Shown here piece by piece: positions 2,810 to 25,265 of a DNA stretch of 64,000 bases. How positions within the stretch are numbered: position 1 is the stretch's first letter; every line of letters starts with the position of its first letter. A program made the translations under genes and the position numbers. Location: NCBI RefSeq assembly GCF_054482595.1, contig NZ_CM137008.1; one strand, 5' to 3'. The notes below the pieces were generated by a model. It was not told the DNA's origin and did no database searches. It worked only from the letters and a program-made list of their open reading frames with translations.

Positions 2810-2815
2810 GGTTAC

Positions 2816-4957: not shown

Positions 4958-4963
4958 TACACA

Positions 4964-4989
4964 CCCGGCCTCAGTGCCGGGTTTTCTTT
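4964..4989 (+). terminator. Rho-independent terminator closing the cI/ORF-A/ORF-B unit (lambda timm position)
   Basis: CCCGGC-CTCAGT-GCCGGG hairpin followed by TTTTCTTT. Confidence 0.65.
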
Positions 4990-4999
4990 GCCCAACGTT

Positions 5000-5262: not shown

Positions 5263-5309
5263 GGCTCTTTAAACAACGTCGAACTCTCGACTACGTGGCT
5301 GAAAAGCCA
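5263..5309 (+). promoter_or_regulatory. nutL-like site (boxA GGCTCTTTAAACAAC, boxB UGGCU-GAAA-AGCCA)
   Basis: boxA-like GCTCTTT and 5-bp stem/GAAA loop hairpin ~100 nt upstream of N; same boxA/spacer(CTACGT)/boxB layout as the nutR candidate. Confidence 0.5.
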
Positions 5310-5407
5310 GATCACCCAACCACATAAGCTGTGGGATGCAATGCCGAAGCAACCGTCTCAGGAGGAGCTTCGAGATTGCATCGCCAAAGTTTATTCGGGA
5401 GGAATCT

Positions 5408-5680
5408 ATGTCCAGAAAAACAAAATTTAAAGGCACCGCAGCTTCTCGCCGTAGAGCCCGTCGCGCAAATCTGCAAAGTCAGGAGGCGATCAGCTCCGAC
5501 AAGCTACACAGACCAACCCCTTCACGAGTGGTCTTGCAATGCAAGCGCAAACCAGCAATGAGAGCAGAAGTTATAACTCTGACAACGTTGACCAGAAAAT
5601 ATGAAGGTTCAACTTGTCTTCCGAACGTAGCTCTTTACGCGGCAGGCTACCGGAAATCAAAACAACTGACGGCGAGATGA
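5408..5680 (+). CDS. N: N-type antiterminator (90 aa), P22 gp24-like
   Basis: Arg-rich N-terminal motif (GTAASRRRARRANL) and C-terminus ...CLPNVALYAAGYRKSKQLTAR resembling recalled P22 gp24 ...LLPGVALYAAGHRKSKQITAR; ORF-track start 5336 judged too far upstream. Confidence 0.8.
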   Translation: MSRKTKFKGTAASRRRARRANLQSQEAISSDKLHRPTPSRVVLQCKRKPAMRAEVITLTTLTRKYEGSTCLPNVALYAAGYRKSKQLTAR

Positions 5681-5696
5681 TAAATTAATTTGCTAA

Positions 5697-6278
5697 TTAC
5701 TTGTTTTTGCCATGCTTATCCTGAGCGATAAGTTCATCCATAAGACTGTCTTTCTTCCCAGCAAACCTAATGTAGCACTCATTTCTATAGCGTTCCGGGA
5801 TAACAAAACGGTCGATTTCAGGATATCCAGTAGCAGAAGGTACCCGAATAAGAAGCCCTTTTTCGAGCAATGAGATTGCTTCAGGGCTTCCCTTTTCTGT
5901 CTTTAGCTGGTTATTAGCGGCTACAGCGAATGCCAAATACGCTCTTTCTCCAAGAGTTAACGAATCAAACAAATCTTGCACGTATTTCTCTTCTTTAGAT
6001 TTGCGCTTCTGAGCAGCGAATATCTCAATTCTTTCAGTCACAGCGTGATAAGCGGAATTAACAACGCCGTTAAGCACATAGCTAACGCAAAACAACAGGA
6101 TGTAATACATCCAGTAATGAGGAAGGATTTCTGGATTATGCAGGTTTATCCATTCTTTTACGCTTACAGGCATAACAATAATCAATATGATCAGGATGAT
6201 TAGCATATGAATCAACTGTTTAAGTGTCATTCCTTGCAGGAAAAAATGCATTAGTTCCTGCCACCATGAGTTGTTCAT
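5697..6278 (-). CDS. sieB: Superinfection exclusion protein B (193 aa), membrane protein
   Basis: Translation MNNSWWQELMHFFLQGMTLKQLIHMLIILIILIIVMPV... matches lambda SieB as recalled. Confidence 0.9.
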   Translation of the reverse strand: MNNSWWQELMHFFLQGMTLKQLIHMLIILIILIIVMPVSVKEWINLHNPEILPHYWMYYILLFCVSYVLNGVVNSAYHAVTERIEIFAAQKRKSKEEKYVQDLFDSLTLGERAYLAFAVAANNQLKTEKGSPEAISLLEKGLLIRVPSATGYPEIDRFVIPERYRNECYIRFAGKKDSLMDELIAQDKHGKNK

Positions 6279-6538
6279 CGGCGTTTCTCTTTTGCTCTCT
6301 GTAGGGGTGAATAGAGTTTATCCGATTTCTCGCTGTAGGGGTACACGAGAACCACCGAGCCTGATGTGGTTAAAAGACAGGCATACTAATAAACACTGCA
6401 CTGTGTATTCATTCCAACGAGTGAATACACTGAGCAATGTCGCTCGTAACTAAACAGGAGCCGACTTGTTCTGATTATTGGAAATCTTCTTTGCCCTCCA
6501 ATGTGAGGGCGATTTTTTATCTGTGAGGATATGAATAG

Positions 6539-6907
6539 ATGTCAAACATCAAAAAATACATCATTGATTACGACTGGAAAGCATCAATAGAAATTGAAAT
6601 CGACCATGACGTAATGACAGAGGAAAAACTTCACCAGATTAATAATTTCTGGTCAGACTCTGAATACCGACTCAATAAACACGGCTCTGTATTAAATGCT
6701 GTATTAATCATGCTGGCGCAACATGCTCTGCTTATAGCAATTTCAAGCGACTTAAATGCATATGGTGTTGTGTGTGAGTTCGACTGGAATGATGGAAATG
6801 GTCAGGAAGGATGGCCTCCAATGGATGGTAGCGAAGGAATAAGAATTACCGATATCGATACATCAGGAATATTTGATTCAGATGATATGACTATCAAAGC
6901 CGCCTGA
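6539..6907 (+). CDS. ea10: Ea10-like protein (122 aa)
   Basis: Size and position between sieB and cIII as in lambda; sequence identity recalled only approximately. Confidence 0.75.
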   Translation: MSNIKKYIIDYDWKASIEIEIDHDVMTEEKLHQINNFWSDSEYRLNKHGSVLNAVLIMLAQHALLIAISSDLNAYGVVCEFDWNDGNGQEGWPPMDGSEGIRITDIDTSGIFDSDDMTIKAA

Positions 6908-6979
6908 GCGCGGCGTTACCGCATACCAATAACGCTTCACTCGAGGCGTTTTTCGTTATGTATAAATAAGGAGCACACC

Positions 6980-7144
6980 ATGCAATATGCCATTGCAGGG
7001 TGGCCTGTTGCTGGCTGCCCTTCCGAATCTTTACTTGAACGAATCACCCGTAAATTACGTGACGGATGGAAACGCCTTATCGACATACTTAATCAGCCAG
7101 GAGTCCCAAAAAATGGATCAAACACTTATGGCTATCCAGACTAA
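6980..7144 (+). CDS. cIII: CIII (FtsH inhibitor, 54 aa)
   Basis: Translation [54 protein letters not shown] matches lambda CIII; below ORF-track size cutoff. Confidence 0.9.
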   Translation: MQYAIAGWPVAGCPSESLLERITRKLRDGWKRLIDILNQPGVPKNGSNTYGYPD

Positions 7145-7256
7145 ATTCACTATCGCCACTTTTATTGGCGATGAAAAGATGTTTCGTGAGGCCGTCGACG
7201 CTTATAAAAAATGGATATTAATACTGAAACTGAGATCAAGCAAAAGCATTCACTAA
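7113..7256 (+). CDS. kil: Kil (FtsZ-targeting host killing peptide, 47 aa)
   Basis: [47 protein letters not shown] matches lambda Kil; overlaps cIII and gam. Confidence 0.85.
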
Positions 7257-7627
7257 CCCCCTTTCCTGTTTTCCTAATCAGCCCGGCATTTCGCGGGCGA
7301 TATTTTCACAGCTATTTCAGGAGTTCAGCCATGAACGCTTATTACATTCAGGATCGTCTTGAGGCTCAGAGCTGGACGCGTCACTACCAGCAGATCGCCC
7401 GTGAAGAGAAAGAGGCAGAACTGGCAGACGACATGGAAAAAGGTCTGCCCCAGCACCTGTTTGAATCACTCTGCATCGATCATTTACAACGCCACGGGGC
7501 CAGCAAAAAAGCCATTACCCGTGCGTTTGATGACGATGTTGAGTTTCAGGAGCGCATGGCAGAACACATCCGGTACATGGTTGAAACCATTGCTCACCAC
7601 CAGGTTGATATTGATTCAGAGGTATAA
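7211..7627 (+). CDS. gam: Gam (RecBCD inhibitor), 138 aa long form
   Basis: Translation near-identical to lambda Gam as recalled. Confidence 0.95.
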
Positions 7628-7632
7628 AACGG

Positions 7633-8418
7633 ATGAGTACAGCACTCGCAACGCTGGCTGGGAAGCTGGCTGAACGCGTCGGCATGGATTCTGTCGACCC
7701 ACAGGAACTGATCACCACTCTTCGCCAGACGGCATTTAAAGGTGATGCCAGCGATGCGCAGTTCATCGCATTGCTGATCGTCGCCAACCAGTACGGCCTT
7801 AATCCGTGGACGAAAGAAATTTACGCCTTCCCTGACAAGCAGAACGGCATCGTTCCGGTGGTGGGCGTTGATGGCTGGTCCCGTATCATCAATGAAAACC
7901 AGCAGTTTGATGGCATGGACTTTGAGCAGGACAATGAATCCTGCACATGCCGGATTTACCGCAAGGACCGCAATCATCCGATCTGCGTTACCGAGTGGAT
8001 GGATGAATGCCGCCGCGAACCATTCAAAACCCGCGAAGGCAGAGAAATCACGGGGCCGTGGCAGTCGCATCCCAAACGGATGTTACGGCATAAAGCCATG
8101 ATTCAGTGTGCCCGTCTCGCCTTCGGATTTGCTGGTATCTATGACAAGGATGAAGCCGAGCGCATTGTCGAAAATACCGCATACACTGCAGAACGTCAGC
8201 CGGAACGCGACATCACTCCGGTTAACGATGAAACCATGCAGGAGATTAACACTCTGCTGATTGCCCTGGATAAAACATGGGATGACGACTTATTGCCGCT
8301 CTGTTCCCAGATATTTCGCCGCGACATTCGAGCATCGTCAGAACTGACACAGGCCGAAGCAGTGAAAGCTCTTGGATTCCTGAAACAGAAAGCCACTGAG
8401 CAGAAGGTGGCAGCATGA
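7633..8418 (+). CDS. bet: Bet (Red beta single-strand annealing protein), 261 aa
   Basis: Translation matches lambda Bet as recalled. Confidence 0.95.
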
Positions 8419-9095
8419 CACCGGACATTATCCTGCAGCGTACCGGGATCGACGTGAGAGCTGTCGAACAGGGGGATGATGCGTGGCACAAATTACGGCT
8501 CGGCGTCATCACCGCTTCAGAGGTTCACAATGTGATAGCAAAACCCCGCTCCGGAAAGAAATGGCCTGACATGAAAATGTCCTACTTCCACACCCTGCTT
8601 GCCGAGGTTTGCACCGGTGTGGCTCCGGAAGTTAACGCTAAGGCGCTGGCCTGGGGAAAACAGTACGAGAACGACGCCAGAGCCCTCTTTGAGTTCACTT
8701 CCGGCGTGAATGTTACTGAATCCCCGATCATCTATCGCGACGAAAGTATGCGCACCGCCTGCTCTCCCGATGGTTTATGCAGTGACGGCAACGGCCTTGA
8801 ACTGAAATGCCCGTTTACCTCCCGGGATTTCATGAAGTTCCGGCTCGGTGGTTTCGAGGCCATAAAGTCGGCTTACATGGCCCAGGTGCAGTACAGCATG
8901 TGGGTGACGCGAAAAGATGCCTGGTACTTTGCCAACTATGACCCGCGCATGAAGCGTGAAGGCCTGCATTATGTCGTGATTGAGCGGAATGAAAAGTACA
9001 TGGCGAGTTTTGACGAGATGGTGCCGGAGTTCATCGAAAAAATGGACGAGGCACTGGCTGAAATTGGTTTTGTATTTGGGGAGCAATGGCGATGA
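8415..9095 (+). CDS. exo: Exo (Red alpha 5'-3' exonuclease), 226 aa
   Basis: Translation matches lambda Exo as recalled. Confidence 0.95.
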
Positions 9096-9274
9096 CGCAT
9101 CCTCACGATAATATCCGGGTAGGCGCAATCACTTTCGTCTACTCCGTTACAAAGCGAGGCTGGGTATTTCCCGGCCTTTCTGTTATCAGAAATCCACTGA
9201 AAGCACAGCGGCTGGCTGAGGAGATAAATAATAAACGGGGAGCTGTATGCACAAAGCATCTCCCGTTGAGTTAA
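9086..9274 (+). CDS. lambda orf60a-like small protein (62 aa)
   Basis: Matches recalled lambda orf60a; overlaps exo 3' end. Confidence 0.7.
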
Positions 9275-9438
9275 GAACGAGTATCGAGATGGCACATAGC
9301 CTCGCTCAAATTGGAGTCAGGTTTGTGCCAATACCAGTAGAAACAGACGAAGAATTTCATACGTTAGCCGCATCCCTTTCACAAAAGCTGGAAATGATGG
9401 TGGCGAAAGCAGAAGCAGATGAGAGAGACCAGGTATGA
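9247..9438 (+). CDS. lambda orf63-like small protein (63 aa)
   Basis: Matches recalled lambda orf63. Confidence 0.7.
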   Translation: MHKASPVELRTSIEMAHSLAQIGVRFVPIPVETDEEFHTLAASLSQKLEMMVAKAEADERDQV

Positions 9439-9518
9439 CAACCACGGAATGCATTTTTCTGGCAGCGGGCTTCATATTCTGTGTGCTTATGCTTGCCGAC
9501 ATGGGACTTGTTCAATGA
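9435..9518 (+). CDS. Small hydrophobic peptide (27 aa, MTTTECIFLAAGFIFCVLMLADMGLVQ), ATGA-coupled on both sides
   Basis: Read from sequence: ATG overlaps orf63 stop (ATGA), stop overlaps next gene start (ATGA); single predicted TM helix; below ORF-track cutoff. Confidence 0.4.
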   Translation: MTTTECIFLAAGFIFCVLMLADMGLVQ

Positions 9519-9730
9519 CACCTCAGCAGGAAAACGCCCTTCGCAGTATTGCCCGTCAGGCTAATTCTGAAATCAAAAAAGCCAGACAGCAGTTTCCGGA
9601 TAAAAACGTCGATGACATTTGCCGTAGCGTACTGAAGAAGCACCGCGAAACGGTAACGCTGATGGGATTCACACCGACTCATTTAAGCCTGGCGATCGGC
9701 ATGTTAAACGGCGTCTTTAAGGAACGGTGA
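9515..9730 (+). CDS. lambda orf61-like small protein (71 aa from this start)
   Basis: In-frame ATG at 9515 within ORF 9419-9730; sequence MTPQQENALRSIARQ...; start choice uncertain. Confidence 0.6.
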   Translation: MTPQQENALRSIARQANSEIKKARQQFPDKNVDDICRSVLKKHRETVTLMGFTPTHLSLAIGMLNGVFKER

Positions 9731-9752
9731 GCATGAAAAACAAAATCATCAT

Positions 9753-9776
9753 GGAGCTACAGGCTCCTTTTTTATT
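9753..9776 (+). terminator. Weak intrinsic terminator-like hairpin inside the leftward operon
   Basis: GGAGC-TACAG-GCTCC followed by TTTTTT; only a 5-bp stem. Confidence 0.35.
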
Positions 9777-9828
9777 ATTCGCATTCACCCTCAAGCGTAT
9801 TAACCAACAATTCAGGGATTAATGAAAG

Positions 9829-10050
9829 ATGGCAGACATCATTGATTCAGCATCAGAAATTGAAGAATTACAGCGCAATACAGCAATAAAAATGCGTCGT
9901 CTGAACTACCAGACTATATCCGCCACTCATTGTTGTGAGTGTGGCGATCCCATAGATGAACGAAGACGCCTGGTCGTTCAGGGTTGTCGGACTTGTGCAA
10001 GTTGCCAGGAGGATCTGGAGCTTATCAGTAAACAGAGAGGTTCGAAGTGA
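9829..10050 (+). CDS. TraR/DksA-family C4 zinc-finger protein (73 aa)
   Basis: CxxC...CxxC motif (CCECGDPIDERRRLVVQGCRTCASCQ) typical of TraR/DksA-type phage proteins. Confidence 0.7.
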   Translation: MADIIDSASEIEELQRNTAIKMRRLNYQTISATHCCECGDPIDERRRLVVQGCRTCASCQEDLELISKQRGSK

Positions 10051-10454
10051 GCGAAATTAACTCTCAGGCACTGCGTGAAGCGGCAGAGAAAGCCGGTGAA
10101 GATAAGTGGCAGGCTAAAAAAATAAATGGTGATTTTTTCGTTATTCGTCACGGTAGTTATACAAGACAGCATGGCTACACATCGTATCAACCCATTGCGG
10201 AGATTGATTGTAAGCCAGTCCGGGATTTTGTTGCCAAGGCTAATCCGGCTACCGTGCTGGAATTACTGGATGAACTGGAAGCAGCAAAAAAGCGCATTGC
10301 AGAACTGGAAGCGCGGGAAATACTGCTCCCGGAACGTAGCAGCATGCTTCATCGAACAGATTTTCACGATGATTACCAAACGGTAATGGCATACAAAGTT
10401 TCTGAAGTCATCGATGCAATCCGCGCTACTGGCATTCGCATCAAAGGAGAGTGA
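10047..10454 (+). CDS. Ead/Ea22-like protein (135 aa), shortened/mosaic
   Basis: N-terminus MSEINSQALREAAE and C-terminus ...ATGIRIKGE as in lambda Ea22 family; coiled-coil motif LELLDELEAAKKRIAELEARE. Confidence 0.7.
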   Translation: MSEINSQALREAAEKAGEDKWQAKKINGDFFVIRHGSYTRQHGYTSYQPIAEIDCKPVRDFVAKANPATVLELLDELEAAKKRIAELEAREILLPERSSMLHRTDFHDDYQTVMAYKVSEVIDAIRATGIRIKGE

Positions 10455-10455
10455 G

Positions 10456-11211
10456 ATGATTCACTACCACGGTGGGCCTATTACTCCTGATACGTGCGCA
10501 ATGAGGGCATGGAAAGGGCGACATGCGTTTATCAGTTTTGCGCATTCAGGCCAGATCAATCTCGCGGCTGAATACTGTCAGTCGTTCGCGCTGGACAACG
10601 GTGCATTCACCGCCTGGAAAGCAGCTGGCAAAAACAAAATCGACTGGAGCGATTACTACGAGTTTGTTGCTCGCTGGAAGAATCACCCAGGATTCGATTT
10701 TGCCATTATCCCGGATATTATTGATGGCGGAGAGGAGGAAAATGATGCGCTTCTGAATGAGTGGCCTCACGGAAAACTAGCTGGCGTTCCAGTGTGGCAC
10801 ATGAATGAAAGTGACGCGCGATTTATTCATTTGTGCAATGAGTTTCCGCGAGTGGCTATCGGTAGTTGTGGCGACTATGACGTAAAGCGCCCAACTCTTG
10901 CGGTAGCCAGAATGAAAGACCTGATTCGTCACATTGTTGATGGGCATGGTCAGCCGGTTACGAAACTACATGGATTGCGCATGTTAAATCCGCTGATATT
11001 CACAAAATTACCCTTAGCCAGCGCAGATAGTACGAACGTCGCTCGAAACATCGGTATTGATAAAGCCTGGTCTAGGGCTTATGCACCTGCAAGTAAAGAG
11101 ACACGCGCAGCATTAATGGTAGAACGGATTGAGGCACACAATAGCCCTGGTTCTCTTGCGTATTGTGAACAACGCGACCGCTTTGAAATGCAATTGCAAC
11201 TAGCAGTTTAA
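10456..11211 (+). CDS. TGT-fold protein, candidate DpdA-like 7-deazaguanine DNA transglycosylase (251 aa)
   Basis: Strong SD AGGAG before ATG 10456; ordered motifs LDNGAF, FAIIPD, VAIGSCG, HGLRM, ADSTNVARN resembling tRNA-guanine transglycosylase motifs DSGGYQ, MAFDE, AVGG, HYLMGVG, FDCVLPTRSGRN; no zinc-binding subdomain; assignment by eye. Confidence 0.55.
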   Translation: MIHYHGGPITPDTCAMRAWKGRHAFISFAHSGQINLAAEYCQSFALDNGAFTAWKAAGKNKIDWSDYYEFVARWKNHPGFDFAIIPDIIDGGEEENDALLNEWPHGKLAGVPVWHMNESDARFIHLCNEFPRVAIGSCGDYDVKRPTLAVARMKDLIRHIVDGHGQPVTKLHGLRMLNPLIFTKLPLASADSTNVARNIGIDKAWSRAYAPASKETRAALMVERIEAHNSPGSLAYCEQRDRFEMQLQLAV

Positions 11212-11221
11212 GGACTAACAA

Positions 11222-12019
11222 ATGACCACTATTACCAAAGAACGTATTGAATTGTTCATTAAAAATCCGCTTGAAAACGGACTTACTCGTGGCGAACAAA
11301 TGGAACTGGCACGAATTGCACTGGCATCACTGGAACGCGAACTGATTCGCCACGAGCATGCCAAATGGTCTGACTCCACATTTGGCTGCGTTGGCCCCAT
11401 TGGTCCACTGAAACACCTCTCAAAAGAGGCTCTGGAAGCCGCAGCCGAACCAGACGATCTCAGCGAGTGGGCTGATATGCATTTCCTGTTGTGGGATGCA
11501 CAGCGCCGTGCTGGCATCAGCGATGCTGAAATTACCGCTGCTATGGAAGATAAATTGAAGATCAACATGGAGCGCCAGTGGCCTGAACCAATAGATGGTG
11601 AGCCTCGCTTGCACATTAAAGAACCCGGCAACTCTCCGGTAATTCCGGATGGTTTATCCACGGTATGCGCTGAGGCTTATCAGGTTGTAGGAGTTATGGC
11701 AGATGCGCTTGGTGTATTCGGTGATGCAGCAGTACAGAAAGTTCTGGATAACCTGTCACAGCAAAAACTTGTTCACAGAGATGTGCTGCCGTTCTCGCTT
11801 CCGGTGACTCCGGATGGTTGGATAAGCTGTAGTGAGCGAATGCCGAAAGAAACGGGTGACATTATTGTTGTTTCGGATGGCATTGTAATGTCCGGGATTT
11901 CTTATTCTCGTCGTGACGGGTTCTATATAGCCGCATTGGAGTACGACGACGATGAGCCAATTGGCGGTGTAACCCACTGGATGCCTCTACCAGAACCGCC
12001 TCGATTAAAGGAGCTATAA
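11222..12019 (+). CDS. Phage protein with N-terminal dATP/dGTP pyrophosphohydrolase-like (DUF550-like) region and C-terminal DUF551-like region (265 aa)
   Basis: C-terminal motif PDGWISCSERMPKE...THWMPLPEPP typical of DUF551; N-terminal acidic region (EWADMHFLLWDAQRR) resembles MazG-like nucleotide pyrophosphohydrolases; recalled, not searched. Confidence 0.6.
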   Translation: MTTITKERIELFIKNPLENGLTRGEQMELARIALASLERELIRHEHAKWSDSTFGCVGPIGPLKHLSKEALEAAAEPDDLSEWADMHFLLWDAQRRAGISDAEITAAMEDKLKINMERQWPEPIDGEPRLHIKEPGNSPVIPDGLSTVCAEAYQVVGVMADALGVFGDAAVQKVLDNLSQQKLVHRDVLPFSLPVTPDGWISCSERMPKETGDIIVVSDGIVMSGISYSRRDGFYIAALEYDDDEPIGGVTHWMPLPEPPRLKEL

Positions 12020-12133
12020 TAGTGAACTATTATATCTATTTGTATTAAAAGAGTTTTTATAAAATAAATCTTCCAAAGCATGTAAAAACACTGTTAATCT
12101 TAACGTGTGTGAAACGTGAAGAGAGGTGTTGAA

Positions 12134-12415
12134 ATGAGCATTCATGATTTGTGTGAAGATCAAGAGCAATGGGCTATGCAGACCCTTATGGGATCAGGAG
12201 TTCTTGCAAGGTGCAGAATCCATAACGATGTAATTTTAGACAGCGGAAATGATGCTTCTTCTGCTTATAAATTAGGAACTTACCTATATCAAAAAGATAA
12301 TAGCTGCAACTTATTCAATACTCTTACTGAAGCCCGCGACGCAATAAAGGATGCATATGAATCGTATTGTGGGATCGATGATTGCCCACAATGCTCAAAA
12401 TACATTGACGATTAA
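12134..12415 (+). CDS. ea8.5: Ea8.5-like protein (93 aa from ATG 12134)
   Basis: SD GAGAGGTG upstream of ATG 12134 (ORF track starts at GTG 12116); C-terminal CPQC motif; lambda-like position and size. Confidence 0.6.
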   Translation: MSIHDLCEDQEQWAMQTLMGSGVLARCRIHNDVILDSGNDASSAYKLGTYLYQKDNSCNLFNTLTEARDAIKDAYESYCGIDDCPQCSKYIDD

Positions 12416-12503
12416 TAATATGAACAAGTAACTATCCTCGCACTCGCGGGGATTTCTTTTATCTGAACTCGCTACGGCGAGTTTTGTTTTATGGAGATGA
12501 TAA

Positions 12504-12671
12504 ATGCACTTCCGAGTTACAGGTGAATGGAATGGAGAACCATTCAACAGAGTTATCGAAGCCGAGAACATCAGCGACTGCTATGACCACTGGATGCTGT
12601 GGGCGCAGATAGCACATGCAGACGTAACCAATATTCGAATTGAAGAACTGAAAGAACACCAAGCCGCCTGA
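12504..12671 (+). CDS. lambda orf55-like protein (55 aa)
   Basis: Translation MHFRVTGEWNGEPFNRVIEAENISDCYDHWMLWAQIAHADVTNIRIEELKEHQAA; followed by hairpin and T-run; below ORF-track cutoff. Confidence 0.6.
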   Translation: MHFRVTGEWNGEPFNRVIEAENISDCYDHWMLWAQIAHADVTNIRIEELKEHQAA

Positions 12672-12710
12672 TGGCGGTTTTTTCTTGCGTGTAATTGCGG
12701 AGACTTTGCG

Positions 12711-12929
12711 ATGTACTTGACACTTCAGGAGTGGAACGCACGCCAGCGACGCCCAAGAAGCCTTGAAACAGTTCGTCGATGGGTACGCGAGTGCAGGATA
12801 TTCCCTCCTCCGGTTAAGGATGGAAGAGAGTATCTGTTCCACGAATCAGCGGTAAAGGTTGACTTAAATCGACCAGTAACAGGTAGCCTTTTGAAGAGGA
12901 TCAGAAATGGGAAGAAGGCGAAGTCATGA
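12711..12929 (+). CDS. xis: Excisionase Xis (72 aa)
   Basis: Translation MYLTLQEWNARQRRPRSLETVRRWVRECRIFPPPVKDGREYLFHESAVKVDLNRPVTGSLLKRIRNGKKAKS matches lambda Xis. Confidence 0.95.
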   Translation: MYLTLQEWNARQRRPRSLETVRRWVRECRIFPPPVKDGREYLFHESAVKVDLNRPVTGSLLKRIRNGKKAKS

Positions 12930-13980
12930 GCGCCGGGATTTACCCCCTAACCTTTATATAAGAAACAATGGATATTACTGCTACAGGGACCCAAGGACGG
13001 GTAAAGAGTTTGGATTAGGCCGAGACAGGAGGATAGCAATCACTGAAGCAATACAGGCCAATATTGAGTTACTCTCAGACAGCGGACGCAAATCACTGAT
13101 AGACAGAATTAAAGGCGGTGACGCAATCACTCTTCATGTGTGGCTTGACCGATATGAAACAATCCTCACCGAAAGGGGGATCAGGCCGAAAACTCTACTC
13201 GACTACGCCAGCAAAATCAGGGCAATCCGAAGAAAATTGCCGGACAAACCGCTCACTGACATATCAACGAAAGAAGTGGCAGCAATGCTAAACACCTACG
13301 TAGCAGAAGGTAAAGCAGCTTCCGCAAAATTAATCAGGTCAACCCTTGTTGACGTTTTTCGTGAAGCAATAGCCGAGGGGCATGTGGCAACGAATCCGGT
13401 AACAGCAACCCGTACAGCAAAGTCAGAAGTAAGGCGCTCAAGGCTGACAGCTAATGAGTATGTCGAGATTTACCATGCAGCCGAACCTCTCCCTATCTGG
13501 CTAAGGCTGGCGATGGATTTGGCCGTCGTTACAGGGCAGAGAGTCGGCGATTTGTGCAGAATGAAATGGTCAGACATAAACGACAACCATCTTCACATTA
13601 AACAGAGTAAAACAGGGGCTAAACTCGCCATTCCGCTAACGCTAACGATTGACGCGCTCAATATCTCATTGGCTGATACACTACAGAAATGCAGGGAGGC
13701 CAGCAGCAGTGAAACTATAATCGCATCAAAGCATCACGATCCGCTTTCCCCGAAAACAGTATCAAAGTATTTTACAAAGGCGAGAAATGCATCTGGCCTC
13801 TCATTTGATGGAAACCCGCCAACATTCCATGAACTGCGTAGCCTGTCAGCGAGGCTATACCGGAACCAGATTGGCGATAAGTTTGCTCAACGTCTTCTCG
13901 GGCATAAATCAGATTCAATGGCGGCGCGGTATAGGGACAGCCGTGGACGGGAATGGGACAAAATTGAAATCGACAAATGA
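12907..13980 (+). CDS. int: Tyrosine integrase Int (357 aa), lambda-family
   Basis: N-terminus MGRRRSHERRDLPPNLYIRNNGYYCYRDPRTGKEFGLGRDRRIAITEAIQANIEL and C-terminal RSLSARLY...HLLGHKSD...REWDKIEI as in lambda Int; central domain divergent. Confidence 0.95.
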   Translation: MGRRRSHERRDLPPNLYIRNNGYYCYRDPRTGKEFGLGRDRRIAITEAIQANIELLSDSGRKSLIDRIKGGDAITLHVWLDRYETILTERGIRPKTLLDYASKIRAIRRKLPDKPLTDISTKEVAAMLNTYVAEGKAASAKLIRSTLVDVFREAIAEGHVATNPVTATRTAKSEVRRSRLTANEYVEIYHAAEPLPIWLRLAMDLAVVTGQRVGDLCRMKWSDINDNHLHIKQSKTGAKLAIPLTLTIDALNISLADTLQKCREASSSETIIASKHHDPLSPKTVSKYFTKARNASGLSFDGNPPTFHELRSLSARLYRNQIGDKFAQRLLGHKSDSMAARYRDSRGREWDKIEIDK

Positions 13981-14074
13981 TTTTATTTTGACTAATAATG
14001 ACCTACTTACATTAATTTACTGATAATTAAAGAGATTTTAAATATACAACTTATTCACCTTAAGTGCACCGACC
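13981..14074. other. attL-type prophage/host junction region (P' arm with arm-type Int sites; core not resolved)
   Basis: TTTTGACTAATAATGACC resembles lambda P' arm-type sites as recalled; lies between int stop and host torS start. Confidence 0.4.
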
Positions 14075-16819
14075 GTGAATTTAACCCTGACCCGAAGACT
14101 CTGGATGGGCTTTGCCCTGATGGCACTGTTAACCCTGACCAGTACCCTGGTGGGATGGTACAACCTGCGCTTTATCAGCCAGGTGGAAAAAGACAATACT
14201 CAGGCATTGATTCCTACCATGAATATGGCGCGCCAGTTGAGCGAAGCCAGCGCCTGGGAACTTTTCGCCGCGCAGAACCTGACCAGTGCCGATAACGAAA
14301 AGATGTGGCAGGCGCAGGGGCGAATGCTCACCGCACAAAGCCTGAAGATTAATGCGTTGCTGCAAGCGTTACGGGAACAAGGTTTTGATACCACCGCTAT
14401 TGAACAACAGGAGCAGGAGATCTCCCGTTCGTTACGTCAGCAAGGGGAACTGGTGGGGCAGCGTTTGCAACTGCGCCAGCAACAACAGCGACTCAGTCAG
14501 CAGATAGTCGCTGCCGCCGATGAGATCGCACGCCTGGCGCAAGGTCAGGCGAATAATGCGACAACTTCCGCTGGAGCGACCCAGGCCGGGATTTACGATT
14601 TGATCGAACAAGATCAGCGTCAGGCTGCTGAAAGTGCACTCGACCGGCTGATTGATATCGATCTTGAGTATGTTAACCAGATGAATGAACTGCGCCTTAG
14701 CGCCCTGCGGGTGCAGCAAATGGTGATGAATCTGGGGCTGGAACAGATCCAGAAAAATGCGCCAACGCTGGAAAGGCAGCTCAATAATGCGGTGAAAATT
14801 CTGCAACGTCGGCAAATACGCATTGAAGATCCGGGAGTTCGTGCGCAGGTCGCAACAACGTTAACTACCGTTAGCCAATATAGCGATCTGTTGGCGCTGT
14901 TCCAGCAGGACAGTGAAATCAGCAATCACCTGCAAACTCTCGCCCAAAATAATATCGCCCAGTTCGCGCAGTTTAGTAGCGAAGTCAGTCAGCTGGTCGA
15001 CACCATTGAGCTGCGCAATCAGCATGGACTGGCGCATCTGGAAAAAGCCAGTGCACGCGGGCAATACAGCCTGTTATTGCTGGGGATGGTTTCACTTTGC
15101 GCACTGATTCTGATCCTCTGGCGCGTGGTTTATCGCTCAGTCACGCGTCCACTTGCCGAACAAACGCAGGCGCTGCAACGGCTGCTGGACGGTGATATTG
15201 ACTCCCCTTTTCCGGAAACCGCTGGCGTACGGGAGCTGGATACCATCGGGCGGCTGATGGATGCGTTTCGCAGCAGTGTTCATGCACTGAATCGCCACCG
15301 CGAACAGCTGGCGGCGCAGGTCAAAGCACGTACAGCTGAATTGCAGGAACTGGTGATAGAACACCGACAGGCACGGGCGGAAGCAGAAAAAGCCAGCCAG
15401 GCAAAATCGGCGTTTCTGGCGGCGATGAGCCATGAGATCCGCACACCGCTGTACGGTATTCTCGGCACCGCACAGCTACTGGCAGATAACCCCACACTTA
15501 ACGCCCAGCGTGATGATTTGCGGGCAATTACTGACTCTGGTGAATCGTTGCTGACCATCCTCAACGATATTCTCGATTATTCGGCTATCGAAGCAGGTGG
15601 CAAGAATGTTTCGGTCAGCGATGAGCCCTTTGAACCGCGCCCGCTGCTGGAAAGTACCCTGCAATTAATGAGCGGACGGGTGAAAGGTCGCCCGATTCGC
15701 CTGGCAACGGCAATTGCCGATGATGTACCGAGCGCGTTAATGGGCGATCCGCGGCGTATTCGTCAGGTCATTACCAACCTGTTGAGCAACGCCCTGCGTT
15801 TTACTGACGAAGGGCAGATCGTTTTACGTAGCCGTACTGATGGTGAGCAATGGCTGGTCGAAGTGGAAGACAGCGGCTGCGGTATTGATCCCGCGAAACT
15901 GGCAGAAATCTTCCAGCCATTTATTCAGGTAAGTGGCAAACGCGGCGGCACCGGGCTGGGGCTGACTATCAGTAGCCGTCTGGCCCAGGCGATGGGCGGC
16001 GAACTGAGCGCCACCAGCACGCTGGAGGTTGGAAGCTGTTTTTGTTTACGCTTGCCGTTACGTGTTGCCACAGCACCCGCGCCAAAAACAGCCAATCAGG
16101 CGGTGCGTCTGGACGGTTTACGTTTGCTGTTAATTGAAGATAACCCGCTAACCCAGCGAATTACCGTTGAGATGCTGAACACCAGTGGTGCGCAGGTTGT
16201 TGCTATTGGCAATGCCGCGCAGGCTTTAGAGACACTGCAAAATAGCGAACCGTTTGCTGCCGCACTGGTGGATTTTGATCTGCCGGATATCGACGGCATT
16301 ACCCTTGCCCGGCAACTGGCACAGCAATATCCGTCGCTGGTTTTGATTGGCTTTAGCGCTCATGTCATTGACGAAACGCTGCGCCAGCGTACCAGTTCAC
16401 TATTTCGCGGGATTATCCCTAAACCGGTGCCGCGTGAAGTGCTCGGTCAGTTACTGGCGCACTATCTCCACCTGCAAGTCAATAACGATCTACCACTTGA
16501 TGTATCGCAACTCAATGAAGATGCTCAATTAATGGGGACGGAGAAGATCCACGAATGGCTGGCATTATTTAAACAACATGCCCTGCCGCTTCTCGATGAA
16601 ATCGACATTGCCCGCGCCAGCCAGGACAGCGAGAAAATAAAGCGTGCCGCGCATCAGCTAAAAAGCAGTTGCTCGAGTCTGGGAATGCGTAGCGCCAGTC
16701 AGCTATGCGCACAACTGGAGCAGCAGCCATTATCTGCCCCCCTTCCACACGAAGAAATTACACGCAGTGTTGCCGCTCTGGAAGCATGGTTGAATAAGAA
16801 AGACCTGAACGCGATTTGA
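14075..16819 (+). CDS. torS: TMAO sensor hybrid histidine kinase TorS (914 aa), GTG start
   Basis: Full-length match to E. coli TorS as recalled (HAMP, HisKA/HATPase, receiver, HPt domains). Confidence 0.95.
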
Positions 16820-16890
16820 ATCAATATCAGCCAGTTAAGAATAACTAGAATAGTGGCATTTGGTATGCAACTTAACGGACTGGCAAAATC

Positions 16891-17964
16891 ATGGCAGAGA
16901 AAAAAAGAACCCGCTGGCAGCGGCGGCCAGGCACGACGGGCGGCAAATTACCGTGGAATGACTGGCGCAATGCCACGACCTGGCGTAAAGCGACGCAATT
17001 CTTACTATTGGCAATGAATATTTATATTGCCATCACGTTCTGGTATTGGGTGCGCTATTACGAAACGGCAGGTAGTACGACATTTCTCGCCAGACCGGGA
17101 GGTATCGAAGGCTGGCTACCGATTGCCGGTCTGATGAATCTGAAATATAGCCTTGCAACAGGTCAGTTACCGTCCGTCCACGCCGCCGCGATGCTGTTAT
17201 TGGTCGCTTTTATCGTCATCAGTCTATTACTCAAAAAGGCCTTTTGCTCATGGTTATGCCCGGTTGGTACGCTTTCTGAATTAATCGGCGATCTCGGTAA
17301 CAAACTGTTTGGTCGGCAATGTGTCCTTCCCCGCTGGCTGGATATTCCTCTGCGCGGCGTGAAGTATTTGCTGTTGAGTTTTTTTCTCTATATCGCGTTA
17401 TTGATGCCCGCTCAGGCGATTCACTATTTTATGTTGTCGCCCTACAGCGTGGTGATGGACGTAAAAATGCTCGATTTCTTTCGTCATATGGGGACCGCGA
17501 CATTAATCAGCGTGAACGTTTTGCTGATTACCAGCCTGTTTATTCGCCATGCCTGGTGTCGTTATCTTTGCCCATATGGCGCGCTGATGGGCGTGGTTTC
17601 GCTATTATCGCCGTTTAAGATTCGTCGCAATGCCGAAAGTTGTATCGATTGTGGCAAATGCGCAAAAAATTGCCCATCACGGATCCCGGTCGATAAATTA
17701 ATTCAGGTACGAACAGTGGAATGTACCGGCTGTATGACTTGCGTAGAGTCATGTCCGGTAGCCTCAACATTGACCTTTTCACTGCAAAAACCTGCGGCAA
17801 ATAAAAAAGCCTTTGCGTTGTCTGGCTGGTTAATGACGCTACTGGTTCTGGGGATTATGTTTACGGTGATTGGTTACGCAATGTATGCAGGAGTATGGCA
17901 AAGCCCGGTGCCGGAGGAATTGTACCGACGCTTAATTCCGCAAGCGCCAATGATTGGTCACTAA
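16891..17964 (+). CDS. yccM: YccM, membrane 4Fe-4S ferredoxin-type protein (357 aa)
   Basis: Cys motifs CxxCxxCxxxCP; TM segments; conserved position next to torS. Confidence 0.9.
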   Translation: MAEKKRTRWQRRPGTTGGKLPWNDWRNATTWRKATQFLLLAMNIYIAITFWYWVRYYETAGSTTFLARPGGIEGWLPIAGLMNLKYSLATGQLPSVHAAAMLLLVAFIVISLLLKKAFCSWLCPVGTLSELIGDLGNKLFGRQCVLPRWLDIPLRGVKYLLLSFFLYIALLMPAQAIHYFMLSPYSVVMDVKMLDFFRHMGTATLISVNVLLITSLFIRHAWCRYLCPYGALMGVVSLLSPFKIRRNAESCIDCGKCAKNCPSRIPVDKLIQVRTVECTGCMTCVESCPVASTLTFSLQKPAANKKAFALSGWLMTLLVLGIMFTVIGYAMYAGVWQSPVPEELYRRLIPQAPMIGH

Positions 17965-17978
17965 ATTAGCAACAAGCG

Positions 17979-18008
17979 GAACATCACCTCGCACGGGGTG
18001 ATGTTCAC
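17979..18008. terminator. Bidirectional hairpin between convergent yccM and gnsA
   Basis: Inverted repeat AACATCACC...GGTGATGTT between the two stops. Confidence 0.5.
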
Positions 18009-18012
18009 AAAA

Positions 18013-18186
18013 TCACATTATTTTGATTTTGACATCATAACTTTCAAGCCCGGTCATTTTTTCTCGCGCGGTGAAGCGAATTTCAGAGACTTCTTTCCCT
18101 GTATTCTTGTTCAGCTCGGCGATTTTTTGCGCGATAAAGTCGGCGATTTCCGTTTCGGCTTGTTTTTTTAACTCTTCAATATTCAC
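18013..18186 (-). CDS. gnsA: GnsA (57 aa), GTG start
   Basis: Reverse translation MNIEELKKQAETEIADFIAQKIAELNKNTGKEVSEIRFTAREKMTGLESYDVKIKIM. Confidence 0.85.
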   Translation of the reverse strand: MNIEELKKQAETEIADFIAQKIAELNKNTGKEVSEIRFTAREKMTGLESYDVKIKIM

Positions 18187-18406
18187 TGTTAACCTCTTCT
18201 GGTCTTAAAAGACAGCAACACGCCAGTAAGGTGTTGGTTCCCGGTACCCTGGTCAGGTAAGAAATGTTATAAGCCATCTCCCCGAAAGATTCAATAATCA
18301 ACAGGTTATCGCTTACTATACATACAGCGTTGAAGAAAAATAAGGCAGATATAAAAAAGGCTCCACGAGGGAGCCTGATATTATTTTGTGAAATCCAGCG
18401 GCGCAT
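18176..18406 (-). CDS. ymcE: YmcE (76 aa)
   Basis: Internal Met of ORF 18176-18439 gives MRRWISQNNIRLPRGAFFISALFFF... matching K-12 YmcE. Confidence 0.8.
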   Translation of the reverse strand: MRRWISQNNIRLPRGAFFISALFFFNAVCIVSDNLLIIESFGEMAYNISYLTRVPGTNTLLACCCLLRPEEVNSEY

Positions 18407-18579
18407 GGTCAGTGCGTATTTGCAGCGCGACGTTATCAAAGGTGATCATCGTCGATTTACAAAAAATACACTTAGCGCCCAAAGGGTTTCGCTCCGTCAC
18501 ATCGAATGCCGATGTGCGGTACTGTGAACCATGACAACATGGACAGCGGAAATGGAGATGTTGAGTAATAACGGCAACC

Positions 18580-18792
18580 TTAGAGCGTAACAACGTTCGC
18601 TGCCGCGGGGCCACGTTGCCCCTGCTCAATAGAAAATTCAACTTTCTGATTTTCGTTCAGCGTGCGGAATTCATTGCTCTGGATGGCGGTGAAATGGACG
18701 AAAACGTCTTTGCTGCCATCATCAGGAGTGATAAAGCCAAAACCTTTATCTGCGTTAAACCATTTTACTAAACCAGTCATTTTATTAGACAT
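18580..18792 (-). CDS. cspG: Cold shock protein CspG (70 aa)
   Basis: CSD protein [23 protein letters not shown]...; conserved neighbourhood. Confidence 0.9.
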
Positions 18793-19077
18793 ATTTTACT
18801 TCCTTCATTTTGGGCCTTTCGGCAAACAGGGCTTTAATACAGAAACTACTTAGTGTTCAGGAGAGAGACTCAAAAGAAGGGGATAATGCCTGATAATGAG
18901 AACTGCTTTAGTAAACTACTTTGTATGCTGTCTGTCTTTCCAACCGACGCAGCTATTAACGCATGATAATTGAGATTAAGCAAATTTTATTTTAGCCGTC
19001 CGGCGGTCTTAAATATCGCTGGCTTTATTTTATTAACCCCGTATAGTGCAGCGCAGTATTTTCAGTAAGGAATTTGT

Positions 19078-19290
19078 TTGTCCCGTAAAATGACAGGAAT
19101 TGTCAAAACCTTTGATCGCAAAAGCGGCAAAGGATTCATTATCCCCTCCGACGGTCGTAAAGAAGTTCAGGTCCATATTTCCGCATTCACTCCCCGCGAC
19201 GCAGAAGTGCTTATACCAGGATTACGCGTGGAATTTTGCCGCGTAAATGGCCTGCGAGGACCAACAGCGGCAAATGTTTATCTCTCTTAA
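19078..19290 (+). CDS. cspH: Cold shock-like protein CspH (70 aa)
   Basis: CSD protein [23 protein letters not shown]... Confidence 0.9.
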
Positions 19291-19731
19291 TATGACGCTG
19301 CTTGTTTAAAGCTGACTGGTTTTATTGGCATAGTTCAATAGTCAACACCATGTATTATAACACAAGTTACTTTTTCACCGGAAAACTAATCCATTTGACC
19401 GAATATCTCTACAACTAATAGTTATAAATGCCACTTAACAGCGAGTTATAGTACCACTTGAAACTATATTGCCAACAATAGTTAATAGCTTTCTTAACAA
19501 TTTTCTTATCTTTAATTTGTATTTTGCTAAGATTTATCTTATGCTCACAAGTCGTATTTCCAGAGGGGAATAGTTAACAATCTTATATTTCCCTCTGCGC
19601 GCCTTTCTCACCCGCTGTATATAGTGCAAGTGGTATGAGGAAAGGGAGATTTCACAAGGATGTTATACTCAAAGTAGACAATCCTGATCTCAAGCGTACG
19701 TATTGTCCATGCGATGAATAAAGGAAAAGTT

Positions 19732-20037
19732 ATGAAACACAAGCTTTCTGCAATCCTTATGGCCTTCATGTTGACGACGCCAGCTGCGTTTGCTGCCCCT
19801 GAAGCAGCAAACGGGACCGAGGCAACGACGGGTACTACTGGCACCACAACGACCACTACCGGTGCAACCACGACGGCTGCTACCACTGGTGGCGTGGCTG
19901 CTGGCGCTGTCGGCACGGCGACAGTTGTCGGTGTGGCAACGGCTGTTGGTGTGGCGACGTTGGCAGTAGTTGCAGCAAATGACAGTGGCGATGGCGGTTC
20001 TCATAACACCTCAACCACCACGTCCACTACGCGCTAA
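19732..20037 (+). CDS. gfcA: GfcA (YmcD), Thr-rich secreted protein (101 aa)
   Basis: MKHKLSAILMAFMLTTPAAFA signal peptide then Thr/Gly/Ala/Val low-complexity region; ORF-track start 19714 is an upstream in-frame Met. Confidence 0.85.
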   Translation: MKHKLSAILMAFMLTTPAAFAAPEAANGTEATTGTTGTTTTTTGATTTAATTGGVAAGAVGTATVVGVATAVGVATLAVVAANDSGDGGSHNTSTTTSTTR

Positions 20038-20143
20038 TTCTGCTTAAACGCGTCGAAATTAAAGTTAAATAATACCCGGTTGCGATATTCGTACCGGGCT
20101 TTAGAGATTTGCATTTTTTTAATTAACCTTTCAAGGATTAAAG

Positions 20144-20788
20144 GTGCGCCCTCTTATTTTATCGATTTTCGCACTATTTCTTGCGGGATGTACGCACAGC
20201 CAGCAAAGTATGGTCGATACATTTCGCGCCAGCCTTTTCGATAATCAGGATATCACCGTAGCGGATCAGCAGATCCAGGCGTTGCCTTATTCCACGATGT
20301 ATTTACGCCTTAATGAAGGGCAACGAATCTTTGTGGTACTGGGATATATAGAACAAGAACAAAGCAAATGGTTATCCCAGGATAACGCCATGCTGGTTAC
20401 CCACAATGGACGTCTTTTAAAGACCGTCAAACTTAATAATAATCTGCTGGAAGTGACAAATTCCGGGCAGGACCCTCTGCGTAACGCGCTGGCAATAAAA
20501 GACGGCAGCCGCTGGACGCGCGATATTCTCTGGAGTGAAGACAACCATTTTCGCTCTGCGACCCTGAGTTCCACTTTTTCCTTTGCTGGATTAGAGACGC
20601 TGCATATTGCGGGTCGCGATGTGCTGTGTAATGTCTGGCAGGAAGAGGTGACTTCCACGCTGCCAGAAAAACAGTGGCAAAACACATTCTGGGTCGATTC
20701 GGCTACTGGCCAGGTTCGTCAAAGTCGGCAAATGTTAGGCGCAGGGGTTATTCCCGTAGAAATGACGTTTCTTAAACCCGCACCATGA
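20144..20788 (+). CDS. gfcB: GfcB (YmcC) lipoprotein (214 aa)
   Basis: Lipobox LAGC; operon position. Confidence 0.9.
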   Translation: MRPLILSIFALFLAGCTHSQQSMVDTFRASLFDNQDITVADQQIQALPYSTMYLRLNEGQRIFVVLGYIEQEQSKWLSQDNAMLVTHNGRLLKTVKLNNNLLEVTNSGQDPLRNALAIKDGSRWTRDILWSEDNHFRSATLSSTFSFAGLETLHIAGRDVLCNVWQEEVTSTLPEKQWQNTFWVDSATGQVRQSRQMLGAGVIPVEMTFLKPAP

Positions 20789-21531
20789 ATAAATTACAGT
20801 CGTATTTCATTGCCAGCGTACTTTACGTAATGACACCCCATGCCTTTGCGCAAGGAACGGTGACTATTTATCTGCCTGGCGAACAACAGACACTTTCCGT
20901 TGGCCCCGTGGAGAATGTTGCCCAGTTGGTGACACAACCGCAACTGCGCGATCGCCTCTGGTGGCCTGGTGCCCTGCTGACCGACTCCGCGGTGAAAGCT
21001 AAAGCGCTTAAAGACTACCAACATGTCATGGCACAGCTTGCTTCCTGGGAAGCAGAAGCTGACGACGATGTGGCGGCAACGATTAAATCCGTGCGCCAGC
21101 AGTTACTCAATCTCAATATTACTGGTCGCTTACCGGTCAAACTGGACCCTGATTTTGTACGAGTGGATGAGAACAGCAATCCCCCGCTGGTCGGGAACTA
21201 TACGCTCTATACCGTACAGCGCCCGGTGACTATTACTCTTCTGGGTGCGGTTTCTGGGGCTGGGCAATTGCCCTGGCAGGCAGGCCGTAGCGTTACCGAT
21301 TATCTGCAAGATCACCCCCGTCTTGCAGGCGCGGACAAGAATAACGTTATCGTGATTACGCCTGAGGGTGAGACTGTCGTCGCCCCTGTTGCCCTGTGGA
21401 ATAAAAGACATGTGGAACCACCGCCTGGCAGCCAGCTTTGGTTAGGCTTTTCTGCGCATGTACTGCCCGAAAAATATGCTGATTTAAATGACCAGATTGT
21501 GTCTGTTTTAACGCAACGTGTTCCTGACTGA
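20785..21531 (+). CDS. gfcC: GfcC (YmcB) (248 aa)
   Basis: Signal peptide; operon position; overlapping stop/start. Confidence 0.9.
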
Positions 21532-23627
21532 TGAAGAAGAATTCTTATCTTTTAAGCTGCCTGGCCATTGCCGTCTCCAGTGCCTGTCATGCTGAAGTAT
21601 TAACCTACCCGGATCCGCTGGGTTCGTCGCAATCGGACTTTGGCGGCACAGGATTGTTGCAGATGCCAAATGCGCGCATCGCACCGGAAGGTGAATTCAG
21701 CGTCAACTACCGGGATAACGATCAATACCGTTTCTACTCCACCTCCGTGGCGCTGTTCCCATGGCTGGAAGGCACCATTCGTTATACGGATGTGCGCACA
21801 CGTAAATATAGCCAGTGGGAAGATTTCAGCGGCGATCAGTCATACAAAGACAAATCATTCGATTTTAAACTTCGCCTGTGGGAAGAAGGTTACTGGCTAC
21901 CGCAAGTGGCGTTTGGTAAACGTGATATTGCTGGTACGGGTCTGTTTGACGGTGAGTATCTGGTGGCCAGCAAGCAAGCGGGGCCATTTGATTTCACCCT
22001 CGGGATGGCATGGGGCTACGCCGGTAATGCAGGCAATATTACCAACCCGTTTTGCCGGGTGAGCGATAAATATTGTCATCGCGCAGAGTCTCACGATGCG
22101 GGCGATATCAGCTTTAGCGATATCTTTCGTGGCCCAGCCTCCATCTTTGGCGGCATTGAGTATCAAACGCCGTGGAATCCCCTGCGTCTGAAACTCGAAT
22201 ACGACGGCAACAATTACCAGAATGATTTCGCTGGCAAACTGCCTCAGGCAAGCCATTTCAACGTCGGTGCAGTTTATCGCGCTGCCAGCTGGGCAGACCT
22301 CAACCTGAGTTATGAACGCGGTAACACGTTGATGTTTGGTTTCACTTTACGGACCAATTTCAACGATCTGCGCCCTGCCCTGCGCGATACGCCAAAACCG
22401 GCATATCAACCTGCGCCTGAATCTGAAGGATTGCAGTACACCACGGTAGCAAACCAACTTACCGCCCTGAAGTATAACGCGGGCTTTGACGCGCCAGAAA
22501 TTCAGCTACGCGATAAGACGCTGTATATGTCTGGTCAGCAATACAAATACCGTGACTCTCGTGAAGCGGTCGATCGTGCCAACCGGATTCTGGTGAATAA
22601 CCTGCCGCAAGGCGTTGAGAAGATTAGCGTGACGCAAAAGCGCGAGCATATGGCGATGGTGACTACCGAAACCGACGTAGCCAGCCTGCGCAAACAGCTG
22701 GCAGGTACAGCGCCTGGTCAATCAGAGCCACTGCAACAACAACGTGTTGAAGCTGAAGATCTTTCTGCCTTTGGTCGGGGCTACCGTATTCGTGAAGATC
22801 GCTTTAGCTACTCTTTCAACCCAACACTTTCACAGTCGCTGGGCGGCCCGGAAGATTTCTATATGTTCCAGCTGGGGCTGATGTCCAGCGCCCGCTACTG
22901 GTTTACCGACCACCTGCTGCTTGATGGCGGTATTTTCACCAATATTTACAACAACTACGACAAGTTTAAGTCTTCACTGTTGCCCGCGGACTCTACCCTG
23001 CCCCGCGTGCGCACGCATATCCGTGATTACGTTCGCAATGACGTTTATCTCAACAACTTGCAGGCGAATTACTTTGCCGACTTAGGCAATGGTTTCTATG
23101 GCCAGGTGTATGGCGGTTATCTGGAAACGATGTACGCCGGTGTCGGTTCCGAGCTGCTTTATCGCCCGCTAGATGCCAGCTGGGCGCTGGGTGTGGACGT
23201 TAACTACGTGAAGCAGCGTGACTGGGACAACATGATGCGCTTCACCGATTATTCCACGCCAACTGGTTTCGTGACGGCTTACTGGAACCCGCCGACGCTC
23301 AATGGCGTACTGATGAAACTTAGCGTTGGGCAATATCTGGCAAAAGATAAAGGGGCAACGATCGACGTCGCCAAACGCTTTGACAGCGGCGTGGCGGTAG
23401 GGGTATGGGCGGCAATCAGTAACGTATCTAAAGATGACTACGGCGAAGGCGGCTTTAGTAAAGGTTTTTATATCTCGATTCCGTTCGACTTGATGACCAT
23501 TGGACCTAACCGCAACCGCGCGGTGGTTTCGTGGACACCATTGACGCGTGATGGTGGACAAATGCTGTCACGCAAATACCAGCTCTATCCAATGACGGCA
23601 GAGCGAGAAGTACCGGTTGGACAATAA
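21531..23627 (+). CDS. gfcD: GfcD (YmcA) outer membrane beta-barrel lipoprotein (698 aa)
   Basis: Size, signal peptide, operon position. Confidence 0.9.
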
Positions 23628-23672
23628 CCTGACGTAATTCATAACATTACATTGACTGATAAATATAAACCA

Positions 23673-25246: not shown

Positions 25247-25265
25247 TTTGAGTTTATAAAATACG

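Follow-up and report, generated by a model that had tools for sequence, protein, structure and literature searches.

An HK022-type attL places a lambda-like prophage directly upstream of torS

Results

The interval between int and torS is an attachment site

[quoted passage not shown] It marks the left end of a lambda-like prophage that an HK022-type integrase inserted between torS and torT. Positions refer to the window, i.e. the whole stretch of 64,000 nucleotides that was analysed, and the features are collected in Table 1. Taken as a whole, the explanation we favor is that attL arose by site-specific integration and that torS was rewired to a phage promoter, and we consider this combination very likely.

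Table 1. Features at and around the prophage junction (positions in the window).
Feature	Position	Strand	Basis or remark
Int-proximal 14 kb of lambda-like prophage	1-14053		Window starts inside the prophage, in ninB
xis, excisionase, 72 aa	12711-12929	+	Pfam Exc, E=3.9e-41
int, HK022-type heterobivalent tyrosine integrase, 357 aa	12907-13980	+	Transcribed towards torS; Pfam Arm-DNA-bind_1, Phage_int_SAM_1 (SAM-like core-binding), Phage_integrase
P'3, predicted arm-type Int site	13974-13983	-	Lambda alignment
attL P' arm, phage-derived, 73 bp	13981-14053	+	Exact 73-bp match in HK022 attP
P'2, predicted arm-type Int site	13985-13994	-	Lambda alignment
P'1, predicted arm-type Int site	13995-14004	-	Lambda alignment
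IHF H'-like site, predicted	14013-14025	-	TATCAGTAAATTA on the - strand, aligned with lambda H' (TATCAATTTGTTG)
C' core-type Int site, phage-derived	14047-14053	-	CAACTTA on the + strand; equals the HK022 attP core, unlike the host B' half-site (CCTTT/CATTT)
Overlap region O, 7 bp	14054-14060		TTCACCT (other strand AGGTGAA); five-way alignment
B core-type Int site, host-derived	14061-14067	-	TAAGTGC on the + strand; XH990 empty attB reads TTCACCTTAAGTGC
Leftover native torS leader	14068-14104	+	7 bp before the GTG at 14075, plus 30 nt from GTG to ATG
torS, TMAO sensor hybrid kinase, intact	14075-16819	+	Longest ORF from GTG, 914 aa; 904 aa from the ATG at 14105

The boundary between phage and host was placed by aligning the window with attB of K-12, attP of HK022, the empty attB of strain XH990 and attR of strain EC5502. 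TTCACCT is the sole block common to all five sequences, and this overlap is the strand-exchange site and the true phage/host junction. To its left the window follows HK022 (CAACTTA and then the P' arm), and to its right it follows the host (TAAGTGC, then ACCGACC, then the GTG). The overlap starts 73 bp after the int stop codon, a distance equal to that in HK022 attL (PMC6814406), and lies 15-21 bp before the GTG of torS; the strictly host-derived DNA upstream of the annotated GTG amounts to 14 bp (14061-14074). A sequence-only reading made earlier had given the end of int (13980) and the GTG of torS (14075) exactly, as the open reading frames 12907-13980 and 14075-16819 confirm, and its placement of the prophage in the torS-torT intergenic region is borne out by the five-way alignment. 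Its estimate that the junction lies about 94 bp upstream of the GTG was mistaken, as this figure is the distance from the int stop codon to the GTG. Among the checks it had proposed were alignment with the uninterrupted K-12 intergenic region and a search for the matching core at the other prophage end. The former located TTCACCT at 14054-14060, and the latter found the same heptamer in attR of EC5502, which served as proxy genome.

Positions 13798-14060 (263 bp) are base-for-base HK022, which rules out chance as the source of the P' arm likeness, and the phage match of the xis-int-att segment as a whole stops at 14064. The attB of HK022 comprises 21 bp with a 7-bp overlap (PMC7736782), and the window's core is of this type, with a 7-bp overlap alike in phage and host. 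All defining features of the HK022-type integration module checked here were found, and the window is a member of that module at its canonical attB.

Integrase and arm-type sites

The xis-int-att DNA is 96% identical to that of HK022 (records X51962 and AF069308) and 98-99% identical to that of the Stx1a-converting phages of O26 and H19J. The Int protein is full length and shares 97% of its residues with HK022 Int and 75% with lambda Int; in an alignment of the three the catalytic residues R212, K235, H308, R311, H333 and Y342 are invariant. Residues 1-55, the arm-binding N-terminus, are identical in the window, lambda and HK022, which fits the shared arm-type sites. The differences from lambda sit in the core-binding and catalytic domains, where D99, P282, K283, K287 and R319 are of the HK022 type (lambda has N, S, G, R and E). 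Positions 282, 283, 287 and 319 were reportedly assigned a part in HK022 core specificity by Dorgai et al. in 1995. The N99D exchange is a documented determinant of the change from lambda to HK022 specificity (PMC10863862). The claim of the earlier reading that the core domain of Int differs from lambda, in keeping with another attB, thus held, insofar as the core-binding and catalytic parts match HK022.

The same reading had noticed lambda-like P' arm-type sites between int and torS, and these were recovered. The motif TTTTGACTAATAATGACC at 13987-14004 aligns, with 2 substitutions, to the part of the lambda P' arm where the arm-type Int sites lie; over the aligned arm, AATGATTTTATTTTGACTAATAATGACCT in the window stands against AATGATTTTATTTTGACTGATAGTGACCT in lambda, and two bases differ. 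P'3 overlaps the int stop codon. We presume that the names P'1 to P'3 can be carried over from the lambda attP map. The IHF consensus is WATCARNNNNTTR, and TATCAGTAAATTA fits it; by this match and the alignment with lambda H', positions 14013-14025 are a putative IHF H'-like site. At the sequence level, then, a P' arm with arm-type sites and an IHF-like site is present between int and the core.

In the lambda record NC_001416 the feature "int 4" (Int binding) is annotated at 27814-27854, inside the int coding region. [quoted passage not shown] We set this feature aside as support for the arm sites since it lies inside the int coding region, off the aligned P' arm stretch.

A host polymorphism beside the overlap

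The first base to the right of the overlap, 14061, is T in the window and A in both K-12 attB and HK022 attP. The empty attB of XH990, a strain of the same host lineage, reads CAACATTTTTCACCTTAAGTGCACCGACCGTG and carries T at the position equal to 14061. This T reflects natural variation of the host B site, because empty sites of the same lineage already carry it. We considered whether it came from a variant core of the phage or from a displaced crossover and rejected both, as the empty sites of the lineage have T and attR of EC5502 has the phage A. E. coli strains differ in the HK022 attB, whose B half-site is either TAAGTGC or AAAGTGC; the B' side varies as well, and reads CAACATTT in XH990 and CAACCTTT in K-12 and EC5502. 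Lysogens with either B variant occur (PMC6814406, Supplementary file 2).

torS and its start codon

TorS has a complete set of Pfam domains (TorS_sensor_domain, HAMP, HisKA, HATPase_c, Response_reg and Hpt), and the gene is annotated as torS in all matching genomes. Fusions to lacZ were active only when made at an ATG 30 nt downstream of the torS GTG (PMC6814406), and because of this we read the in-frame ATG at 14105 as the start codon; the common annotation of the GTG is probably wrong. RefSeq/PGAP starts torS at the GTG (914 aa), and the native start site TSS2 lies within 3 bp of this GTG (PMC6814406).

The prophage body and its far end

The part of the prophage within the window (1-14053) carries a ninB fragment, ren, P, O, cII, a cro-like gene, a cI-like repressor gene, sieB, cIII, kil, gam, bet, exo, Ea22-like genes, xis and int, and the prophage matches lambda-like phages as a mosaic. 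Positions 1-13000 are 100% identical to the prophage of EC5502, and the identity runs on to 14124. Neither torT nor torT-proximal intergenic DNA nor a phage P arm is found within the 64-kb window, and EC5502 was used as proxy for the far end, its host backbone differing from that of the window (98.6% identity). There the identical prophage is complete: 48,273 bp separate the two overlaps, attR reads CAACCTTT-TTCACCT-AAAGGATGAC with the sib/tI hairpin following on the phage side, and torT lies just beyond. [quoted passage not shown] In the window's own strain torT would likewise be about 50 kb from torS, as the proxy supports well, and the window's copy of the prophage is presumably complete, judging from EC5502.

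In the identical prophage of EC5502 the interval from Q to the lysis genes has no annotated stx; the late region of the window's own copy falls beyond the 64-kb stretch. On the strength of the EC5502 annotation we rejected the reading of this element as an Stx phage, even though its closest int/att matches are Stx1a phages. In the EC5502 copy PGAP records one frameshifted and one truncated early-left gene (MJ614_RS23065 and MJ614_RS22990), which map to 5205-5430 and 11222-11341 of the window; this is minor decay in a prophage that otherwise looks complete.

Occurrence of empty and occupied sites

Nearly all complete E. coli genomes (5,414/5,426) match the segment 13600-14500, most of them only in its torS part, from about 14047 onwards. 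The whole int-torS join is found in 191 of the 5,426 (3.5%); in a published survey approximately 5% of genomes had a prophage at attB(HK022) (PMC6814406). An empty site of 128 bp was reconstructed by fusing, at the overlap, the EC5502 host sequence on the side of torT with the torS side of the window. Many genomes contain it at 100% identity, and 5,217 of the 5,426 match it with a coverage of at least 80%.

Over 14061-30000 the window agrees at 100% with the backbone of XH990 (urine, Zhejiang), in which attB is unoccupied, and Santai and other genomes also match the window's host backbone at 100%. Identity to EC5502 (urine, Hangzhou) extends over positions 1-14124, through the prophage part and attL and 50 bp into torS; the EC5502 host backbone stands at 98.6%. 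The exact combination of phage and host is found in no complete genome of the collection, and the best match across the junction has 99.7% identity. The same phage in two host lineages suggests recent transfer.

Discussion

The effect of an HK022 junction on TMAO respiration has been described by Carey, Mettert, Fishman-Engel, Roggiani, Kiley and Goulian (eLife 2019; PMC6814406), whose findings are the background to all that follows on expression. In non-lysogens one torS start site, TSS1, lies on the torT side of attB and the other, TSS2, close to the GTG, and an IscR operator common to torS and torT keeps both very low in air (PMC6814406). In HK022 lysogens the prophage parts TSS1 and the IscR site from torS and cuts the TSS2 promoter, and torS is transcribed from a single start site mapped inside the prophage; approximately 200 bp of lysogen sequence upstream of torS sufficed for transcription in vitro from a single mapped start (PMC6814406). 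Expression of torS-lacZ goes up in these lysogens, an omega terminator at attL abolishes it, and torT is unchanged (PMC6814406). Excess TorS without TorT dephosphorylates TorR, which turns torCAD off aerobically and leaves it normal anaerobically; the lysogens lose the bet-hedging fraction of cells that comes through a sudden shift to anoxia on TMAO, and extra TorT brings back aerobic torCAD expression (PMC6814406). The natural lysogen NRG 857C behaves in the same way, with aerobic torCAD off (PMC6814406).

The anatomy of the window is that of these lysogens. The last gene of the prophage is int, which reads towards torS, and the prophage parts torS from the IscR site and TSS1. The region around the phage-encoded torS start is conserved, as it falls within the stretch identical to HK022, and over its phage part the window equals the HK022 attL template that was tested, bar the host base 14061. 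Its other strand agrees with the published alignment's row for MG1655(HK022), as machine-read from the PDF, save for two differences: the B site has TTA in place of TTT, and a single base differs within an A-run. From this identity across the phage part of the tested template we infer the same transcriptional mechanism here, with good though not full confidence. One counterpoint is that the prophage body is a lambda-like mosaic, unlike HK022, and read-through or trans effects could differ.

According to the proposed mechanism, for which transcription and physiology in this strain are taken from the literature, a prophage with HK022-type int, xis and attP inserted into the 21-bp attB(HK022) within the 82-bp torS-torT intergenic region, strand exchange taking place within TTCACCT at 14054-14060. 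The insertion deprives torS of its native control region: the TSS2 promoter is cut through, and TSS1, together with the IscR operator that torS and torT share, comes to lie beyond a prophage of some 48 kb. As in HK022 lysogens, torS would come under a constitutive, outward-reading promoter in the phage DNA by attL, in the P' arm or the 3' end of int. TorS would then rise and TorT would remain repressed by IscR in air. Because TorS that is not bound to TorT would act as a TorR phosphatase, torCAD would be silent in air and expressed as usual without oxygen, and the cells would lose their bet-hedging expression of TMAO reductase in air.

The simplest competing view is plain promoter loss, with torS silent or strongly reduced and the Tor phosphorelay inactive in the lysogen. 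It could draw on the 14 bp of strictly host DNA left before the annotated GTG and on the P' arm, which lacks sigma-70 consensus above chance: a scan returned 2 promoter-like sites, against 1.0 +/- 1.1 in shuffled sequence, and the authors of the HK022 study also saw no clear -10/-35 at the phage start site (PMC6814406). Yet HK022 lysogens, whose attL is identical except at 14061, show raised torS-lacZ and normal anaerobic induction of torCAD, and promoter loss was explicitly tested and rejected (PMC6814406). With 263 bp upstream of torS, through the overlap, identical to HK022, we regard this view as highly improbable. The sequence-only reading had supposed that displacement of the native promoter region may alter TMAO sensing; sensing is indeed altered in HK022 lysogens and in a natural lysogen, but torS is raised by a phage promoter and not lost (PMC6814406). 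Transcription of torS mainly by read-through of phage units that cross int (pI or pL), tracking repression and induction of the prophage, appears very unlikely to us. For it speak the orientation of int, which faces torS, and the fact that no terminator-like hairpin occurs between the two genes. Since sib/tI, the normal end of int transcripts, lies on the P arm at attR and is 48 kb off when the phage is integrated, a boost of torS by unterminated pL/pI read-through is possible, and such read-through may add to torS transcription during induction. However, the single mapped start and the sufficiency of approximately 200 bp upstream of torS in vitro (PMC6814406) argue against it as the main source.

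The junction might also be a chimera made in assembly, or mark the border of a prophage that is rearranged and defective. Its exact phage/host combination is in no complete genome of the collection (99.7% at best across the junction), its phage part is 100% EC5502 while the EC5502 host backbone is 98.6% to the window's, and some surveyed strains show large torS-torT rearrangements (PMC6814406). Against this, the breakpoint coincides with the 7-bp Int overlap, which has phage C' to its left and the B site proper to the host lineage to its right, and the same architecture occurs in 191 complete genomes. Because a break at the Int overlap is the product of Int-mediated recombination, we give a chimera almost no credence, and hold to site-specific integration with a phage promoter that reads into torS.

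The probable place of that promoter is the stretch of the P' arm occupied by the predicted arm-type Int sites and the IHF H'-like site. Consensus-like -10 hexamers occur at 13994-13999, across the P'2/P'1 boundary, and at 14022-14027, over the 3' part of H', in a number no greater than in shuffled sequence. It is conceivable, if rather unlikely, that torS output is not simply constitutive and is modulated by IHF/Int occupancy, with or without pL/pI read-through, which would tie TMAO sensing to the state of the prophage. If true, IHF/Int occupancy could shift torS with growth phase or early induction.

Compared with known systems the window stands closest to HK022 attL, which was reportedly described in E. 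coli K-12 lysogens by Yagil et al. in 1989. The two share the attB, the 7-bp overlap, the 73-bp P' arm, the orientation of int towards torS and an Int with 97% identity. They differ in the host B site beside the overlap (A in the HK022 K-12 lysogen, T in the window) and in the rest of the prophage, which in the window's case is another lambda-like mosaic, with lambda-type head and tail genes in the EC5502 copy, and of 48.3 kb as measured there, compared with 40.75 kb for HK022. Lambda attL at the gal-bio attB has the same order of int stop codon, three arm-type sites, IHF H' site and core, with nearly identical arm-type sites and an identical Int 1-55. We know of no report of lambda attL driving a host gene. 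Lambda departs from the window in its core and overlap sequences, its chromosomal target and its Int (75% identity), whose divergence falls in the core-binding and catalytic domains, at position 99 among others (PMC10863862). The same site and int module are used by Gally of LF82 (int/att DNA 94.5% to the window; PMC9928086), by the Stx1a phages of O26:H11 and H19J (int/att DNA 95-99%; PMC10042803) and by the NRG 857C prophage between torS and torT (PMC6814406), and mEp235 is a relative at the same site. Outside the int module the gene content of Gally and the Stx1a phages differs from that of the window's prophage, which, unlike the latter, is without stx in the identical EC5502 copy.

The junction is real but ordinary, as its biology has been known in mechanistic detail since 2019 (PMC6814406), and it opens no new question. 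It is a textbook case of a prophage that alters host physiology via a promoter in its attachment arm and not via a cargo gene: over-expressed TorS switches off the aerobic bet-hedging expression of TMAO reductase, and 3.5-5% of E. coli genomes have a prophage here. For the source strain we would predict that aerobic torCAD expression is absent. The practical value lies in annotation, with junction, core and arm sites placed to the base and the torS start read as ATG 14105.

Two further observations concern the surroundings of the prophage. In the collinear EC5502 annotation a tRNA-Ser(TGA) gene at 37774-37861 of the window lies between yccA and the hya operon; tRNA genes of this kind often serve as targets of integration, and no insertion is apparent at this one. 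The chromosome of strain SM107 shares the window's host backbone at 100% identity, and a separate SM107 record of 111,450 bp (NZ_CP130669.1) matches 76% of the window's prophage early region at 99.7% identity, and this record may be a phage-plasmid or an unplaced contig.
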